Of a stretch of DNA of 13,664 bases, positions 332 to 13,664 are shown one piece after another. Below the pieces are notes generated by a model that was given only the letters and a program-made list of their open reading frames with translations, was not told the origin of the DNA and made no database searches. Both the position numbers and the translations under genes were made by a program. The stretch comes from a candidate division WOR-3 bacterium (GTDB lineage Bacteria > Hydrothermota > Tepidihabitantia > Tepidihabitantales > Tepidihabitantaceae). Position 1 is the first letter of the stretch. The number at the start of each line of letters is the position of its first letter. The stretch spans positions 1-13,664 of the forward strand of contig JBDRUH010000042.1 of assembly GCA_039801225.1 (NCBI GenBank). Reading direction: 5' to 3'.

Positions 332-1114
332 ATGGCTTTTAAGTTTAATGGTAAGGTTAGTGGAGATACTTCGGACTTATTGATTTACGTCGGTCTGCAT
401 TTTTTGCTTATCCTGGTGCTTATTAGTGTAGTAACCTGCACATCATCAGAAGAACGGAGGCAGATGGACAGGAGTTATGCACCGTTAGAAAAAGTTCATA
501 CTAACAAGAGCAAAGAGACACCAATAACCATTCCTGCCGATGTAGCTGAGCGCATGCTTGCGGAAGTGCGCAAACTTAAGGCTAAAAGAAAGAATGCCCA
601 AGACACCATGAGTTCCGAAGCCATCCCTGCCGTGGAGAAAAAAAAGAAGCGCATGATTCCTCGCAAGGTTGCGGAAGAGCTTCTCTCTGTAGTTCTACCC
701 AAAATACCTAAAAATGGATATGTCTGGCGTAATCATAAACGCGAGGAAATTGCCCCTTTTCGAATCGTTACATCCCCAAGCGGTTACTACTACTATTATT
801 GTAAACTATTCAATTTAAAAAGGGACACATGGACTTTAGCAGTGTTCATTCATCCTGGCAAAAGTATCTCGTTAGAGGTCCCGGTAGGTTCTTATGAACT
901 AAGATATGCTGTCGGTGATACATGGTATGGAAGAGAACATTTATTTGGACCTCGGACTTCTTACTATAAAGCTGAGGCTGTTTTACATTTTCAAATTGTA
1001 GGTAACCGAGTTTCTGGTTATGAAGTGCAATTGTACCCTCAACCATATGGCAATCTACGAACCCGCTCAATTTCTCCTAATGAATGGGGAAGTGATGAGC
1101 AAGGAGGTGAATAG
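332..1114 (+). CDS. Hypothetical membrane-anchored protein with a beta-rich C-terminal domain
   Basis: 260 aa. N-terminal TM helix (LLIYVGLHFLLILVLISVVTC), a charged linker, then a globular domain (APFRIVT...YYCKL...VFIHPG...VPVGSYELRYAVGDTWYG..HLFG...GNLRT) that I recognise as a recurrent uncharacterised bacterial domain. Confidence 0.8.
   Translation: MAFKFNGKVSGDTSDLLIYVGLHFLLILVLISVVTCTSSEERRQMDRSYAPLEKVHTNKSKETPITIPADVAERMLAEVRKLKAKRKNAQDTMSSEAIPAVEKKKKRMIPRKVAEELLSVVLPKIPKNGYVWRNHKREEIAPFRIVTSPSGYYYYYCKLFNLKRDTWTLAVFIHPGKSISLEVPVGSYELRYAVGDTWYGREHLFGPRTSYYKAEAVLHFQIVGNRVSGYEVQLYPQPYGNLRTRSISPNEWGSDEQGGE
1101..1110 (+). promoter_or_regulatory. Shine-Dalgarno sequence for the 1118 CDS
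   Basis: AAGGAGGTGA lies 7 nt upstream of ATG 1118, inside the 3' end of the previous gene. Confidence 0.8.
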
Positions 1115-1117
1115 ATT

Positions 1118-1807
1118 ATGCCTTTTCCGAAAATTAAAAGGGGTAGCAGCCTACATTGCTTCTTCTGTAATTCAATAGTTGAGGAGACCGCCACAGTATG
1201 TCCGAAATGTGGGAAAAAATTAAGCGATGTCATTAAAATATCAACAATGCCATCCTCAACAGCATCATCGTCATTCGCTATTAAGCCCCCGAAAGTCATG
1301 CTACCAAAAATTCTTTATTTGGGTGTTACATCTATCCTGTGGATAACAGGGGCAGTATTAATAGCATACGGAAACCTAAAATCCTACCCAAGCCCAGATT
1401 TGGCAGCTGTAGGGCTATTTTTACAAATTGGTGTACTCCCGCTTTTCCTCATTTGTTTATACAGAGCTTGGAAATCAATAGATGATGGGCTCGCACGAAC
1501 CACACCTGGCCGTGCGGTTGCTTATCTCTTTATACCCTTCTTTAATATTTTCTGGCTCTGGCAATGCACAGTTGGGTTTGCCAAGGATTATAACGCATAT
1601 TGTGAACGCTACAAGTTGCCTCTCCCAAAACTTAAGAGCGGACTGTTCGTAATTTGGTTTTTTTTATCTTTATTTTACGTACCTGTAATGATATTCTCCC
1701 TTGCTAGTTTTGTTGTTACAGCATTCGGAATTATAGTATATCTTTTTACGCTTCTGATGCTTAATGCCGTATGTGGTGCGGTTAATAAACTTGCATCGCT
1801 TCCTTAG
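1118..1807 (+). CDS. Zinc-ribbon plus DUF4328-like membrane protein
   Basis: N-terminal CxxC-x10-CxxC (CFFC...CPKCG). 4-5 TM segments. Motif YRAWKSI...TTPGRAVAYLFIPFFNIFW is typical of DUF4328/DUF4234-like proteins. Strong SD. Confidence 0.8.
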   Translation: MPFPKIKRGSSLHCFFCNSIVEETATVCPKCGKKLSDVIKISTMPSSTASSSFAIKPPKVMLPKILYLGVTSILWITGAVLIAYGNLKSYPSPDLAAVGLFLQIGVLPLFLICLYRAWKSIDDGLARTTPGRAVAYLFIPFFNIFWLWQCTVGFAKDYNAYCERYKLPLPKLKSGLFVIWFFLSLFYVPVMIFSLASFVVTAFGIIVYLFTLLMLNAVCGAVNKLASLP

Positions 1808-1828
1808 TTGGTGCAAAAGGACACATCC

Positions 1829-1856
1829 GGATTTCTCCACTTCGGTGGAAATGACA
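1829..1856. repeat. REP-like hairpin, possible terminator between convergent genes
   Basis: GGATTTCTCCACTTCGGTGGAAATGACA: stem TCCAC/GTGGA with a C(TTCG)G loop, extendable by ATT/AAT. It shares the GGATT...AATGACA ends with 3042-3067 and lies between stops at 1807 (+) and 1886 (-). Confidence 0.6.
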
Positions 1857-1885
1857 TTGTCTGAACAAGTCAGCGTGTATCAATC

Positions 1886-2884
1886 CTATCGTCTCTTTCC
1901 ATCCCACTGCTCAAATATGAACCGGGCGAGTTGGCGCAATAGAGCCGTGTTGTGTTTGGGGCGGGCGCAGGTCTTTAGATTATACTCAACCCTTTTTGTC
2001 CTCTCTTCAGAATCGGGCGGATATTTTTGGGCAATGTTTAGGAAACTGTTGATGAACGCCCGGTAGTTGCCCAAATCCACCTTAGAAACACCCTGTTGAG
2101 TCAATAGTTTGATCGCACCATCAATTATCGGTGCCGAACGCCTTTGAAACTCCGCCAACTCCTTTAACCTTTCCTGTTGCCGCTCATAACGGCACAGCCA
2201 CTCGTCACTGACAACCCTTTTCCTTGCCGGGCGTGCCAATACCATTTCCGCCTCCTCTATCGTCGGCAATCTGTAAAGTTCTCCCGCCTTTTTCAGGCTG
2301 ATAAAAACCTGGGTAACAACACCCTGCAGGTGTTCAATAAGTTCCTCGGGCAGACCCTTTTCCCTTTGCCTTTTCTTTAGCCTCTTCACCCTCTTTTCAA
2401 GAGCAGTTCCCTGCCCTTTTCCCTCCTGGACAAGGATGCGGAGTAAACTCCGGCAGAACCTGACCGCATTCTTGCGCAAAGAGGTGAAAGGCGGAACTTT
2501 CAGCCGGTTAAGTTCATTGTGGACTGCCATCTCAAGTTTCTGGAGTAAATTTACCATTGCCGCCTCGGCACGCATTCTCTCAATTTCTAAATCCCTTTTT
2601 CTTGGTCTTGGTCCCCGGCTTTTCTTTTCCGGAACCGGCAAAGGCTGGCAAAGGTATTTGGCAAAGATGCTTTTTAGGTCCTCAGGGGTTGCCTTGCAGG
2701 CACGCAGATAGTCAAGGATGAGTTTCAAGGATGGGTTGGCAATGCGCCCGTGCTCAAGTTGGTAGATTCGGCTTTTTCTGTCACGGCATTTGAGACCGAT
2801 GGCACCAGCAACCTGGTCCTGAGTCAGCCCAGATTTCAGCCTGAGTGCACGCAGTTCGGCAAAAAGTTCTGCGAGCGGCTTCAC
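1886..2884 (-). CDS. XRE-family helix-turn-helix protein with two C-terminal helical repeats
   Basis: aa 4-70 match HTH_XRE (LRALRLKSGLTQDQVAGAIG...IYQLEHGRIANPSLKLILDYLRAC). The remainder is basic and helical, with an internal repeat at aa ~113-198 and ~250-327. GTG start. Confidence 0.85.
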   Translation of the reverse strand: MKPLAELFAELRALRLKSGLTQDQVAGAIGLKCRDRKSRIYQLEHGRIANPSLKLILDYLRACKATPEDLKSIFAKYLCQPLPVPEKKSRGPRPRKRDLEIERMRAEAAMVNLLQKLEMAVHNELNRLKVPPFTSLRKNAVRFCRSLLRILVQEGKGQGTALEKRVKRLKKRQREKGLPEELIEHLQGVVTQVFISLKKAGELYRLPTIEEAEMVLARPARKRVVSDEWLCRYERQQERLKELAEFQRRSAPIIDGAIKLLTQQGVSKVDLGNYRAFINSFLNIAQKYPPDSEERTKRVEYNLKTCARPKHNTALLRQLARFIFEQWDGKRR

Positions 2885-2890
2885 AAATTA

Positions 2891-2918
2891 AGTGTATATA
2901 AAAATACACAAATTACAA
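2891..2918 (-). promoter_or_regulatory. Putative sigma70 promoter of the XRE gene (leaderless) with an overlapping palindromic operator
   Basis: Minus strand reads TTGTAA (2918-2913) - 16 nt - TACACT (2896-2891) - 6 nt - GTG start (2884), with no SD. Palindrome GTGTAT-N6-ATACAC at 2892-2909. Confidence 0.55.
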
Positions 2919-3041
2919 CCCTGATGTTTTAACCTATCCCTCGCAATTTAGTAACTTAGTTAGGAGACAGTTTTTGACAGGGGGCAGTTCCCCGGTTAAT
3001 TCTGAATTTCCTCTATAATTTCGTTAAATAAGGCATCAGTA

Positions 3042-3067
3042 GGATTCACGGCTCCGCTTGAATGACA
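3042..3067. repeat. Degenerate REP-like hairpin
   Basis: GGATTCACGGCTCCGCTTGAATGACA: ATTCA/TGAAT arms and the same ends as 1829-1856. Followed by G and a T6 run. Confidence 0.5.
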
Positions 3068-3152
3068 GTTTTTTAAAATGCAAACCTATGCCCTGAGTCC
3101 AAGTGCAAGGTGATTGTTTCGCTAAGTCCTGCTCAGAACCAAAGGCAAGTTA

Positions 3153-3210
3153 GTGTTTCGTCACTACGCTCTTCACAAAGACAGGCGGACGAGAGGCTCG
3201 GAATGATGGG
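3153..3210. repeat. Further decayed REP-like remnants
   Basis: GTGTTTCGTCACTACGCTCTTCACAAAGACAG (3153-3184) and GCTCGGAATGATGGG (3196-3210). They resemble the widespread ...TTCGTCGCTTCGCTCCTCGCAATGAC and ...GCTCGGAATGAC repeat types (consensus recalled from memory). Confidence 0.35.
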
Positions 3211-3260
3211 GCGAGGAGTAAAGGTTTGCCCTGATTATATGATTATAGAATTTTATGGTC

Positions 3261-4394
3261 TTACTTCATCACTTCTGATTTGGCAAAGGAACGGTCAAGC
3301 CGGAACTCACTTATGTCAATAGAACTCCTGCCAGTGGTAATCATTTCTGCCAGGAGGTCGCCCAATGCCGGACCGAACATAAAACCATGCCCGCTCATTC
3401 CCGCTGATACATAAAACCCTTCAACCGGTGTAGGACCACATATAGGGTTGCCATCCGGTGTCATCTCGTAAGAACCCGCCCACTGTCGCAGGACTTTGAC
3501 TGAAGCCAACTTGGGCAGAAGCCTGACCATCCTTCTCGGCATCTCAGTGATAAACTCATCCGAGGCATCAGTCCGATGCCCTGAAACGATCGGCACCGGA
3601 GTATAACAGCCAAGAAAATGACCGGTTTTATAATGCTGGACAAAGTAGCAGCCATCCTTGCGGTAATCTACCAGCATCGGCTCAAGACACCGTTCAACCG
3701 CCTCAGTTACCAGCGCCTCATGACGGTCAGGTTCAACCGGGACATTAACATTGGCAAGTCTGCCAATCTCTTTTGCCCAGGGTCCGGCAGCATTCACTAT
3801 TACGGGCGCAAAAATCTCCTCTCCTTTGTTAGTAACAACTGATATGACCCGGCTGTTTTTCACATTGATTTTCTTCACCTCGGTGTAGACAAAAACCTTT
3901 GACTTTAACCTCTTCATCTCCTCAAGATAGCCATAGGTTACCTTGAACGGATTCGCCTGGCCATCGGTTGGACACCAGGCCCCACCCAATAGACCTTCAG
4001 AAGCAAGACCGGGGACAATCCGACAGCACTCATCAGGTGATATAAATTCAACCTTTAGCCCATATCTTCTTTGTATTTCAATCGCTTGAAGAAACGCCCT
4101 TTTTCGCTCCTCATCAAAGGCAAGAAAGAGATAGCCACCAGCATACCATTCAATATCTCTATTCAGTTCCTTATCAAGTTCTTGAAACATCTTGATACTT
4201 TTCAGCATTACCCGAATTGTTAAATCATGGGTAAATTGGGCTCTGATTCCACCGATGCAACGACCGGTTGAGCCGGAACAGGGAAAGTTCCTTTCTAAGA
4301 GAAATACTCTCAAACCCTTTTTTGAAAGATAATAACCGGTAGCCGCACCGATTATGCCACCGCCAATAACAATCGCATCAGCGGTCTTTTTCAT
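3261..4394 (-). CDS. FAD-dependent amino-acid oxidoreductase (DAO family; dye-linked L-proline dehydrogenase beta / sarcosine oxidase beta-like)
   Basis: Rossmann motif AIVIGGGIIG, plus GSTGRCIGGIRAQF, DGQANP, WAGSYEMTPDGNPICG and GMSGHGFMFGPALG. Start moved to ATG 4394 (MKKTAD), which follows AAGGAGG. Confidence 0.92.
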   Translation of the reverse strand: MKKTADAIVIGGGIIGAATGYYLSKKGLRVFLLERNFPCSGSTGRCIGGIRAQFTHDLTIRVMLKSIKMFQELDKELNRDIEWYAGGYLFLAFDEERKRAFLQAIEIQRRYGLKVEFISPDECCRIVPGLASEGLLGGAWCPTDGQANPFKVTYGYLEEMKRLKSKVFVYTEVKKINVKNSRVISVVTNKGEEIFAPVIVNAAGPWAKEIGRLANVNVPVEPDRHEALVTEAVERCLEPMLVDYRKDGCYFVQHYKTGHFLGCYTPVPIVSGHRTDASDEFITEMPRRMVRLLPKLASVKVLRQWAGSYEMTPDGNPICGPTPVEGFYVSAGMSGHGFMFGPALGDLLAEMITTGRSSIDISEFRLDRSFAKSEVMK

Positions 4395-11193: not shown

Positions 11194-11871
11194 CTACCGC
11201 TTGATTTTATTTACCCGTTTACTGGCAAACGCCTGATAGATTATAATTGCCGTTAGACCGATAGCCGCAATAACCAGACCCCAGAAACCCAGCAGGGAAA
11301 GGCTGGTAACAATTCCGGCAGCAATAAGAACACCCAGAAAAATTGCTAAAAGGGCACGCCCGTAGGAAATCCCCAATAAAACCGCGGCTATTGAACCGGT
11401 CCAAGCACCGGTCATCGGTAAAGGGATGGCAACGAAAATCACCACTCCCCAGAATTCAAACCGGCTAATAATATCACTCTTTTTCCTGGTGCGCTTGAAG
11501 AGCCAATCAAAGAATCTCCGAAACAGGGGAACTGGACTTAGCCAGACAACCAATCGTTCTAATAAAAGTAAAACAAGAACTATCGGCAGCATATTACCGG
11601 CAATAGAGAGGAAAATGGTTTTATAAAGGGGAAGGGCAAAAAGGTTATTACCAATTGGCACCGCACCGCGCAGTTCAACTATTGGTAGCATCGCCACAAG
11701 AAAAACCACCGCCTCCGGACTTAAACCTTTCCTCCTTAACCCTTCGGCAATCCTTTCTCCGGTTGTGCCCTGACCCGATGATGAGGCATAACCCATTACC
11801 GGTAGAAGAAGGAAAAGTAGAGCAAAGATAATAGAGAGCCCCTGTGCTCTTTTAGCCTTGAACCACCTCAC
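11194..11871 (-). CDS. Putative small multi-drug export protein (COG2426)
   Basis: AMLPIVELRGAVPIG, GNMLPI, FVAIPLPMTGAWTG; multiple TM segments. GTGA overlap with the upstream stop. Confidence 0.9.
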   Translation of the reverse strand: MRWFKAKRAQGLSIIFALLFLLLPVMGYASSSGQGTTGERIAEGLRRKGLSPEAVVFLVAMLPIVELRGAVPIGNNLFALPLYKTIFLSIAGNMLPIVLVLLLLERLVVWLSPVPLFRRFFDWLFKRTRKKSDIISRFEFWGVVIFVAIPLPMTGAWTGSIAAVLLGISYGRALLAIFLGVLIAAGIVTSLSLLGFWGLVIAAIGLTAIIIYQAFASKRVNKIKR

Positions 11872-13664
11872 AAAAGCCCTTTTCTCCGACGGAAAAAAAG
11901 TTCAATACCAAAAAGGACCATTCCGATGGCTAACCACCAGGGAGAACCCCTCGGGTCAAAAGTCAGCCGTCGCTTAAGTGAAACAGGTTTAATCTCAAAA
12001 TCGGAAAAAGTTCCGAGACTCTCCGCCGGAACAAAACATCCTTTAGTTAATTCAGCAAGCCGAGAGAGGAGTCGCCGATTCATTCCTAACTTCGTCATTT
12101 CCACACTTTGCTGGGAGACCTCAAACTGAACCATCGGTCGGACATTCATACTCCCCAATTTTAACGGCACTTCTGCGGTAGCAGAATACCTGCCGGCAAA
12201 TAGACCGGGCACTTCTACCCGATATACTCCTGGTTCTTTTTCAATCATTGGCATACGCATACCACCCGGAGAAAGAAGGAGCACGACATCAAGCCCCTCC
12301 CAGGGAGTGCCATCAGGTTTTAAGGCAGTAAAAGTGAAACCGACCGGTTCGCCAGCAAGATAGGTAAACGCATTGGCATTCAATCGAAAGAGTAGTGTAT
12401 CTTTTTCACCGAGATAGCGAATTACCCCGCTCAGTAAAGCCGCCAACGGGGTGGTTCTATCAAGAGAAAAGTCGGGCAAAAATCCCCAACGCCAGATATC
12501 CAATCCGCCGAAATAGACCACCTTGCCCCTTTTAACCCTGCCGGCAACCAATAAAGGCTCACCACTCCCGGCAACTTTCAGAATAACAGTTGAATTGTCA
12601 AAGGGTATGCCGGTGAAAACTCCTTTCAAAGGGGGGATACTATTTTTTTTAGTTCCATAGTCGGAAAACCAGGGAAAAATTTGCCCTGTCTCGGTTAACT
12701 CCGGATAAAAACCCTCCGCTTTAGGACTGGCAGGGGTAAGCCGCCGGAGTTCTTTTAATGGTAAGATTCGCCGCAACTTCCCTCCTGAAGAAAATTCTCC
12801 TCCAGCCAGAATTAATGCACCGGCACCCGCCTCCACCCTTTGACAAACTTCCTCTAAGAGATCCGCATCCACCGAACGCTCTAAGATACCATCAATAATA
12901 AAAACATCGCCGTTGGCCACCGCCAAACGGCTGTTGGCTGTCGGCTGTCGCCCGGAATCGGGCGCCCGATTTGGGCGGCTGTCGTCCGTAAAAACCAGTA
13001 CCGGAAAAACCGACACCCTTTTATCACTTCTCAACGCCTGAAGAATAAATCGGCAATTAGGACCGGGACGATTGGTGAGGTAAACGACCTGGATTCTAGC
13101 TGGCTTCACCTCAAATGAAGTCCTCCTGAAATTGTCCAGGTAACTCATCTCTCCGGAGAGACTTTCGGCAAAGACCGTTAATGTTTTATACCCTGGCGAG
13201 GTAAATACTACAGGGAAAACAATCTCCTGTTCACTAACACTAGAGCTGAGAGGAACCTCTCGGCTCTCGGCTGTCGCCCGGAATTGCCCAGAATCGTGCC
13301 CGCTTGGCGGCTGTCGGCTATCGCCCGGTTGGATACGAATGATCGCCTTTTCCCCAAAAGAAAAACCCTCACTCTGAACTATTACTTTAACCAATACTGT
13401 ATCAAGCGCATAAACTACTGGCGGAACAAAGACATCCTTCACCGTTAGGTTGCGCCCTCCTTGCCAACCAAAGCCTACAGTATATATCGGCACTCCCGCC
13501 TTTTCGGCAATAGCGACCGGGTCCTTCTCACCATTATCCTGACCGTCACTTAAAACCACCACCGCTCCCGGTTGATGTTTTAAGACAATCTCCAGCGCCC
13601 TGCCCAGTCGGGTCCGCTCTTCTCCTGATACCGAATCTAAACTATCTCTTAACAAAAGAACACT
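11868..13664 (-). CDS. vWA-like / Ig-like / class I glutamine amidotransferase-like membrane protein, 5'-truncated
   Basis: The frame is open to the window end. TRLGRAL...VVVLSDGQDN...PIYTVGFG (vWA C-terminal half), E.SYLDN Ig-like segment, VEAGAGALILAGG...GKVVYFG..DIWRW (GATase-like), C-terminal TM followed by RRRKGLL. Confidence 0.8.
   Translation of the reverse strand, partial: SVLLLRDSLDSVSGEERTRLGRALEIVLKHQPGAVVVLSDGQDNGEKDPVAIAEKAGVPIYTVGFGWQGGRNLTVKDVFVPPVVYALDTVLVKVIVQSEGFSFGEKAIIRIQPGDSRQPPSGHDSGQFRATAESREVPLSSSVSEQEIVFPVVFTSPGYKTLTVFAESLSGEMSYLDNFRRTSFEVKPARIQVVYLTNRPGPNCRFILQALRSDKRVSVFPVLVFTDDSRPNRAPDSGRQPTANSRLAVANGDVFIIDGILERSVDADLLEEVCQRVEAGAGALILAGGEFSSGGKLRRILPLKELRRLTPASPKAEGFYPELTETGQIFPWFSDYGTKKNSIPPLKGVFTGIPFDNSTVILKVAGSGEPLLVAGRVKRGKVVYFGGLDIWRWGFLPDFSLDRTTPLAALLSGVIRYLGEKDTLLFRLNANAFTYLAGEPVGFTFTALKPDGTPWEGLDVVLLLSPGGMRMPMIEKEPGVYRVEVPGLFAGRYSATAEVPLKLGSMNVRPMVQFEVSQQSVEMTKLGMNRRLLSRLAELTKGCFVPAESLGTFSDFEIKPVSLKRRLTFDPRGSPWWLAIGMVLFGIELFFRRRKGLL
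12928..12988. repeat. Intragenic heptamer/palindrome repeat, copy A
   Basis: CGGCTGT TGGCTGT CGGCTGT CGCCCGGAATCGGGCGCCCGATTTGGG CGGCTGT CGTCCG. Contains the perfect 16-bp palindrome AATCGGGCGCCCGATT (12956-12971). Confidence 0.75.
13261..13328. repeat. Intragenic heptamer/palindrome repeat, copy B
   Basis: CGGCTCT CGGCTGT CGCCCGGAATTGCCCAGAATCGTGCCCGCTTGG CGGCTGT CGGCTAT CGCCCGG. Shares the exact 17-mer CGGCTGTCGCCCGGAAT with copy A. Confidence 0.75.

Follow-up and report, generated by a model that had tools for sequence, protein, structure and literature searches.

A helix-turn-helix protein with a tandem capsid-like module from candidate division WOR-3

Introduction

A 2017 survey of capsid origins reportedly gives no cellular relative for the capsid protein of the virus realm Adnaviria, to which rod-shaped and filamentous viruses of archaea belong. 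The gene described here, which encodes a protein of 332 amino acids (aa), bears on that question. It lies on the minus strand of a 13,664-nucleotide stretch of DNA, hereafter the window, that comprises positions 1 to 13,664 of contig JBDRUH010000042.1 (NCBI GenBank assembly GCA_039801225.1) from a candidate division WOR-3 bacterium; the source genome is 1.5 Mb in size and 88.8% complete. In PMC9169541 and PMC7189273, Adnaviria is described as archaea-specific and the fold of its capsid proteins as specific to archaeal viruses. According to PMC6105669, viral proteins with this fold, known as the SIRV2 type, form homo- or heterodimers that polymerise on DNA, each wrapping 12 bp in the A-form.

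We consider it likely that the bacterial gene encodes a DNA-binding protein in which an XRE-type helix-turn-helix (HTH) domain is joined to a tandem module of the SIRV2-type capsid fold, homologous to the capsids of Adnaviria, and that this module grips DNA beside an operator. The protein is better regarded as a cellular derivative of the capsid fold, divergent and fused, than as a capsid protein; its fused pair of domains would be the single-chain counterpart of the capsid dimer.

Results and discussion

Architecture of the gene product

An initial annotation of this DNA, made from the letters and a list of open reading frames (ORFs), had placed an XRE-HTH protein with two tandem capsid-like domains at 1904-2548. 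That span corresponds to aa 113-327 of the sole long ORF at this position. The ORF list, translation, alignments and predicted models together divide the gene as follows.

1886-2884, minus strand: whole gene, 332 aa, with a GTG start at 2884 and the stop codon at 1886-1888 (ORF list and translation).
2651-2884, minus strand: XRE-type HTH domain, aa 1-78, five helices.
2600-2650, minus strand: linker, aa 79-95, basic and proline-rich, net charge +4, modelled at low confidence (predicted local distance difference test, pLDDT, 60-75).
2288-2599, minus strand: R1, the first capsid-like unit, aa 96-199, a long helix (96-127) followed by helices 135-154, 160-175 and 180-199 (AlphaFold models and hhalign).
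2207-2287, minus strand: connector between R1 and R2, aa 200-226, with a short helix at 209-217 (alignments and model).
1889-2206, minus strand: R2, the second capsid-like unit, aa 227-332, a long helix (227-263) followed by helices 268-287, 293-306 and 313-331, as a SIRV2-type four-helix bundle.

The N-terminal HTH was confirmed by a Pfam match to HTH_31 over aa 9-70 (38 bits, against a gathering cut-off of 27), and the domain has five helices, as is typical of XRE proteins. Past the HTH, searches of the protein against NCBIfam, PHROGs and PADLOC returned nothing. The connector between the two units carries the motifs GELD-x-LP and R-x-R-V-x-x-D, both conserved in the family. The whole protein is strongly basic (net charge +31, isoelectric point, pI, 10.2); the C-terminal module carries +20, and the family median for this module is +10 (33 rows).

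Two homologous units

The repeat strings quoted in the initial annotation are present in the C-terminal region; the motif NxxxFxxSxLxI was found in both units, each time with KRV 13-14 aa further on. Compared as single sequences by BLASTP, aa 96-215 and aa 216-332 showed no significant similarity (E 0.69, in another register). On family profiles the repeat is beyond chance: when the two halves were cut from a 37-sequence family alignment and compared with hhalign, aa 123-196 aligned to aa 259-329 in the very register that had been proposed (P = 6e-4, score 24.7). None of 60 column-shuffled controls reached this score (mean 10.0, standard deviation 1.8, maximum 15.2), and the reversed-profile control scored 11.9. 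Judged by these profiles, the two units are homologous to each other.

A full-length AlphaFold2 model, built from a 37-row alignment, had a pLDDT of 92.5 and helices of similar length in both halves (32/20/16/20 residues in R1 and 37/20/14/19 in R2). A separate model of aa 96-332 reached a pLDDT of 96.6 and a predicted template modelling (TM) score of 0.84, so R1 and R2 form a single compact module.

A bridging family of small bacterial proteins

The link from this module to viral capsids runs through a family of small, stand-alone bacterial proteins. They were sought with the Pfam model PF12193 (rudivirus coat, Sulf_coat_C) at E ≤ 0.01 in 272 genomes of the phylum and 14 control genomes. Matches were present in 51 of the 272 genomes, 24 of which contained matches above the Pfam cut-off, and in none of the 14 controls. 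By taxonomic family, the matches were distributed over 39 of 43, 8 of 10, 1 of 6, 1 of 2 and 1 of 16 genomes, with none in any other family; single genomes held up to 14, mostly open frames of 120-200 aa. The source genome is represented by an ORF on contig 35 with 23.5 bits (cut-off 25.2; E 5e-5; model positions 12-123 of 134).

A hidden Markov model (HMM) of the small family was then compared with the 11,657 six-frame ORFs of the source genome. It recovered the contig-35 copy, a copy on contig 6 (E 5e-36) and a paralogue of the target with an HTH and 220 aa (E 6e-4). The search for stand-alone capsid-like paralogues that the initial annotation had suggested therefore yielded two genes in this genome (G000).

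G000:C35:12324-12644 (L024:1468-1836), minus strand: stand-alone protein of ~122 aa.
G000:C6:39641-40087 (L045:6039-6404), minus strand: stand-alone protein of ~122 aa.

Counted from the first ATG, 21 small ORFs are ~122-125 aa long. The small proteins are basic (median pI 9.6), are invariant at R7, W11 and K14, and matched no NCBIfam family. Nineteen of the small proteins and four rudivirus capsids align end to end at 20-22% identity with a single 4-residue indel; six columns are invariant across these 23 sequences, among them the R..W..K of the DNA-wrapping N-terminal arm. Profile comparisons with hhalign (probability, P value, aligned columns) connect the small family to the viral capsids on one side and to the fused proteins on the other.

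Small family and rudivirus capsid: 98.1%, P 1.3e-13, 113 columns.
R2 and small family: 92.5%, P 4.8e-7, 93 columns.
R1 and small family: 64.5%, P 6.3e-5, 70 columns.
Single domain of the 220-aa paralogue and small family: 83.8%, P 7.9e-6, 75 columns.

The registers of these alignments are mutually consistent: position 45 of the small family corresponds to capsid position 55, to aa 253 in R2 and to aa 117 in R1. From these alignments, the small family is clearly homologous to the major capsid proteins of the rod-shaped archaeal viruses (Adnaviria). Through the bridge that it provides, the capsid-type fold proposed for the tandem domains gains strong support in R2 and moderate support in R1.

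Direct comparison with viral capsid proteins

The initial annotation had compared the repeats with two strings of the SIRV2 capsid protein. Both strings do occur in SIRV2 ORF134 (GenBank AJ344259). The proposed ungapped pairing of the SIRV2 string with LLTQQGVSKVDLGNYRAF gives 6 identities in 18 positions at an offset of 198, precisely as in the structural and profile alignments. Single-sequence BLASTP between the target and SIRV2 ORF134 was not significant (E 0.13, in a different register). SIRV2 ORF134 had 55 database relatives, all with PF12193, and a 25-sequence rudivirus capsid profile was used for the direct comparisons by hhalign.

Whole family and rudivirus capsid: P 0.031, aa 250-292 aligned to capsid 52-94.
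R2 and rudivirus capsid: P 0.0035, score 21.3 (50 shuffles, mean 10.0 and maximum 14.6; reversed profile 6.5).
R1 and rudivirus capsid: P 0.002, score 23.2 (reversed profile 9.7).

These direct alignments have the same offset as the structural one, in which an R2 residue number exceeds that of its capsid partner by 198. Three near-invariant residues of the family, L261, G265 and Y274, then lie opposite three invariant residues of the rudivirus capsids, L63, G67 and Y76.

In a structural comparison, the six top matches among 48,161 chains all belong to one virus realm, Adnaviria, and 93-95% of the capsid domains present in the crystals is aligned, at ~2 Å. The scores below come from an in-house structural aligner with a predicted model as query, and helical bundles may reach ~13 on its scale through their common arrangement (rmsd, root-mean-square deviation; last figure, aligned residues).

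3fbz_A, AFV1 ORF140: score 11.3, rmsd 2.3 Å, 88.
6wq0_A, SSRV1: score 10.8, rmsd 12.0 Å, 125.
3fbl_A, AFV1 ORF132: score 10.8, rmsd 2.0 Å, 78 of 82.
3f2e_A, SIRV-YNP: score 10.5, rmsd 2.2 Å, 77 of 83.
5w7g_B, AFV1: score 9.8, rmsd 2.4 Å, 81.
6d5f_a, SFV1: score 8.1, rmsd 2.8 Å, 85.

Each compact alignment (rmsd 2.0-2.8 Å) lies within aa 242-332 of R2; the SSRV1 alignment stretches over the whole model. R2 is thus modelled as a SIRV2-topology four-helix bundle behind a long helix. The same capsid fold is moderately supported for R1 by its profile alignments and helix pattern. ESM Atlas scores did not exceed 0.85, a level at which they are no more than leads and are uninformative.

Several observations weigh against a capsid-related, DNA-gripping module. 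Pfam at E ≤ 10 gave no match in the ~250 residues outside the HTH, neither to PF12193 or PF21660 nor to another capsid family. Searches of PDB sequences with phmmer and hmmsearch found HTH matches and one designed helical repeat (E 1e-3, judged to be chance), with no capsid chains. The direct profile matches to rudivirus capsids are weak (P 0.002-0.03, probability 1.6-14%), and selection accounts for part of the small family's score against the viral capsid profile, since the 21 small proteins are the best PF12193 matches; this selection leaves the comparisons of R1 and R2 with the small family unaffected. The proposed check by AlphaFold and fold search succeeded in part: the in-house alignment matched R2 to the SIRV-YNP, AFV1 and SFV1 capsids, but Foldseek, run with both models against PDB and BFVD, returned no capsid protein, only HTH proteins and designed repeats, all at E >0.05. 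The fold match consequently rests on one in-house aligner and a predicted model. Neither R1 nor R2 has a recognisable counterpart of the capsid arm motif R..W..K; their alignments to the small family begin past it, at small-family positions 45 and 24, respectively. The long helices (aa 96-127 and 227-263) have a net charge of 0. Given this neutrality and the lack of the arm motif, a pure dimerisation or scaffold role is possible for the module.

Some of these points would suit an ordinary XRE transcription factor with a dimerisation or ligand-sensing tail, the likeness to capsids being a convergence of simple four-helix bundles. Helical C-terminal domains are frequent among XRE regulators, the top full-length Foldseek matches were regulators of the Rgg/PlcR type (E 0.07-0.1), and the target has no direct sequence match to capsid families in Pfam or PDB. 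The alignments to Rgg/PlcR proteins, however, are poor (TM 0.16-0.19, rmsd 27-30 Å). Convergence would also have to account for a list of 48,161 chains headed by six from a single virus realm, for three independent profile comparisons that agree with the structural alignment in one register, and for a bridging family that rises above Pfam's own cut-off for a capsid model. We regard this explanation as unlikely. Assignment to the RRNPP-type regulators (Rgg/PlcR) in particular was considered and rejected: the C-terminal module could not be superimposed on their tetratricopeptide repeat (TPR) sensor, and no TPR match was found with Pfam.

Family distribution and habitat

When 1.84 billion representatives were searched exhaustively with phmmer, the family yielded 234 proteins at ≤1e-3, 52 at ≤1e-10 and 13 at ≤1e-30. 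About 30 are full-length, and many of the weaker matches span the HTH only. Ten clusters of the family were looked up; four carried an organism name, in each case candidate division WOR-3, and the nearest relative is a WOR-3 orthologue with 79-81% identity. A word-indexed homologue search returned a single close relative, and its profile version returned four proteins, all already known. Among the 272 genomes of the phylum, aa 96-332 matched 28, including 25 of 43 in one taxonomic family, with up to 8 matches per genome; an alignment-based scan of genome contigs gave 14 loci. The family is a lineage-specific bacterial one, of candidate division WOR-3 and of hot-spring habitat.

Three members are present in the source genome, the 332-aa target and two paralogues.

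G000:C28:11954-12619 (L047:5952-6614), minus strand: 220-aa paralogue, HTH and one capsid-like unit.
G000:C45 (L048:7656-8837), plus strand: 393-aa paralogue with both C-terminal units (hhalign probability 98.1% to R1 and 94.9% to R2).

The fused and free genes of this genome are spread over five contigs. It appears that the fused pair arose within this bacterial lineage from a stand-alone gene, and the 220-aa paralogue, with its HTH and one domain, possibly represents an evolutionary intermediate.

Words sampled from window positions 1700-3300 were found in hot springs metagenome DNA, at shares of 0.27-0.67 in four runs of one study and at small shares in three further runs of other studies; the best run may be the source sample, and no RNA run was among those listed. 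This occurrence suggests a thermophilic habitat, in common with the hosts of rod-shaped archaeal viruses.

Upstream region and proposed function

The DNA directly ahead of the gene offers a candidate site for the HTH.

2885-2958, minus strand: conserved block of ~75 bp directly upstream of the start codon, near-identical to that of the orthologue; the rest of the 375-bp spacer diverges.

Visual inspection of this block revealed an imperfect inverted repeat whose arms, 2941-2949 and 2910-2918, are separated by 22 nt. There is no obvious Shine-Dalgarno-like sequence ahead of the GTG. From its conservation, the block is probably the promoter together with an operator.

In the mechanism that we favor, the HTH would supply sequence-specific recognition and hold the protein on an operator. 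The probable site is the conserved promoter block of its own gene, where the inverted repeat 2910-2918 / 2941-2949 is the candidate. The capsid-like pseudo-dimer (+20) would contact the flanking DNA whatever its sequence, as the dimers of the viruses do. Flanking DNA clamped in this manner would give a longer and steadier footprint, leading to repression or to local coating of the DNA. The module may also present a docking or assembly surface for the free small proteins. A predicted complex of the C-terminal module with a small protein scored a median of 0.31 (mark 0.32; controls 0.00), a result that counts neither way.

The initial annotation had raised filament nucleation and a decoy function as possibilities. 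A larger role can be imagined, in which the HTH-anchored pseudo-dimer of an architectural or chromatin protein seeds the cooperative polymerisation of the small proteins into a capsid-like, possibly A-form, protective coat of the DNA in a thermophile. Free small homologues do occur in the same genomes, in two copies here and with up to 14 matches elsewhere; they are basic, they keep the motif of the N-terminal arm, and the DNA was found in hot-spring metagenomes. The viral homologues polymerise on DNA (PMC6105669). Against this role, the fused and free genes are unlinked here, on five different contigs, and no phased 12-nt array was detected around the target or around either of the small genes in the source genome. 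We think such a role quite improbable. A bolder version, also unlikely though a little less so, extends to the family as a whole: a chromosomal, vertically inherited, multi-copy Adnaviria-type family would serve as cellular DNA-coating proteins, chromatin-like and possibly A-form-inducing, with the HTH-fused tandem form as nucleator or boundary element, and would be a cellular relative, perhaps the source, of the realm's capsid, or else a cross-domain domestication. If this were true, a whole realm of viruses, regarded as specific to archaea, would have in this family the long-sought cellular relative of its capsid. An operator-bound regulator that grips the adjoining DNA through its capsid-like module remains our preferred description of the target.

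Genomic neighborhood

The neighbors of the gene in the window are of a housekeeping kind: an FAD oxidoreductase, a BFD-like ferredoxin, an SppA peptidase, ApbE, a radical SAM enzyme and a metallo-beta-lactamase-fold protein. A search of the window for tRNA and Rfam families found none. Elsewhere, at 7 orthologue loci and 21 small-gene loci, neither viral hallmark genes nor a conserved set of neighbors was found, and the 7 orthologue loci showed no conserved operon partner; genes for a release factor, NAD kinase, riboflavin synthesis, TonB and sigma-70 are among those alongside. In IMG/VR viral contigs, searched with one peptide pattern, no relative was found (0 of 7 pattern matches were confirmed). 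The loci are chromosomal and not proviral, and the proteins are not virus-encoded.

This context bears on whether the capsid-like domains could be present or recent virion proteins of an integrated or defective Adnaviria-type virus of bacteria. Such an origin would fit the multi-copy state of the family, a fold that PMC9169541 reports from viruses alone, and the archaeal rod viruses that are reported to encode a whole capsomer in a single gene (bioRxiv 10.1101/2025.08.23.671958). Against it stand the housekeeping neighbors in the window, the orthologue and small-gene loci free of viral hallmarks and conserved neighbors, and the negative IMG/VR search with one pattern; in addition, 39 of the 43 genomes in the taxonomic family have the small family, which fits vertical inheritance. 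We consider a provirus highly improbable.

Several other features of these neighborhoods were noted. Two adjacent ORFs in the window have no Pfam match, 332-1114 (plus strand, 260 aa) and 1118-1807 (plus strand, 229 aa), and converge on the 3' end of the target; the second begins with a CxxC...CxxC, zinc-ribbon-like, and continues with hydrophobic stretches. At the far edge of the window, an ORF of 595 aa (11868-13655, minus strand) with a hydrophobic end segment has no Pfam match at E ≤ 1e-3. Type IX secretion cargo genes (Por_Secre_tail, often with Kelch, BNR, FG-GAP or NHL repeats) adjoin both fused and free genes: they were seen at 4 of the 7 orthologue loci (L017, L019, L020 and L021), on both sides of the contig-35 copy (L024/L046) and at at least three other small-gene loci (L027, L031 and L032), by impression more commonly than expected. 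Por_Secre_tail matches in the source genome number 43. One orthologue is adjoined by a possible defence gene, which encodes a 508-aa TPR and TIR protein (Thoeris ThsB-like TIR; L018:7109-8635, plus strand).

Comparison with known systems

A full-text literature search found no paper that ties Adnaviria capsid proteins to bacteria or to WOR-3. What is clearly new is the occurrence of capsid homologues in bacterial chromosomes in three forms: as free-standing proteins, as one unit joined to an HTH and as two units joined to an HTH. The multi-copy chromosomal family in a bacterial order may outweigh the tandem-domain protein from which this work began. With bacterial homologues in hand, the origin of the Adnaviria capsid becomes a question testable by phylogeny, rooting and biochemistry. 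A soluble, single-chain "capsomer" would offer a simple system for learning how the fold grips and remodels DNA, and the findings hint that thermophilic bacteria possess a new class of DNA-architectural proteins.

Among described proteins, the XRE regulators with a helical C-terminus (the Rgg/PlcR RRNPP type, Stl and DdrO) share with the target an N-terminal XRE HTH and probably the role of transcription factor; its C-terminal module, by contrast, does not superimpose on TPR-type sensors (TM 0.16-0.19, rmsd ~28 Å). The capsids of Adnaviria (SIRV2 ORF134; SIRV-YNP, 3F2E; SSRV1, 6WQ0; AFV1 ORF132 and ORF140, 3FBL, 3FBZ and 5W7G; SFV1, 6D5F) resemble it in being basic and in carrying the signature L-x3-G-x8-Y in the same register, and their homo- or heterodimer (PMC6105669) parallels the two units of its module. 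Unlike them, the target is encoded on a bacterial chromosome, has its units fused in one chain with an HTH, lacks a direct Pfam match and has no recognisable arm motif. Filaments and A-form DNA are described for the viral proteins.

The small ~123-aa proteins come from the same lineage as the target, are homologous to R1 and R2, are likewise multi-copy and lie in similar chromosomal contexts. They differ in having a single domain and no HTH, in retaining the full N-terminal arm, and in reaching the Pfam capsid cut-off in 24 genomes; the small form is also more widely spread than the fused form (51 as against 28 of 272 genomes). For the fusion itself, the nearest described parallel is found in the single-gene "complete capsomer" proteins predicted in archaeal rod-shaped viruses (PBV300 and Demeterviridae), which, like the target, hold two SIRV2-like units in one polypeptide (bioRxiv 10.1101/2025.08.23.671958). 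These capsomers are viral, are encoded beside glycosyltransferase genes and have no HTH, whereas in the WOR-3 protein the paired units follow a DNA-binding domain.

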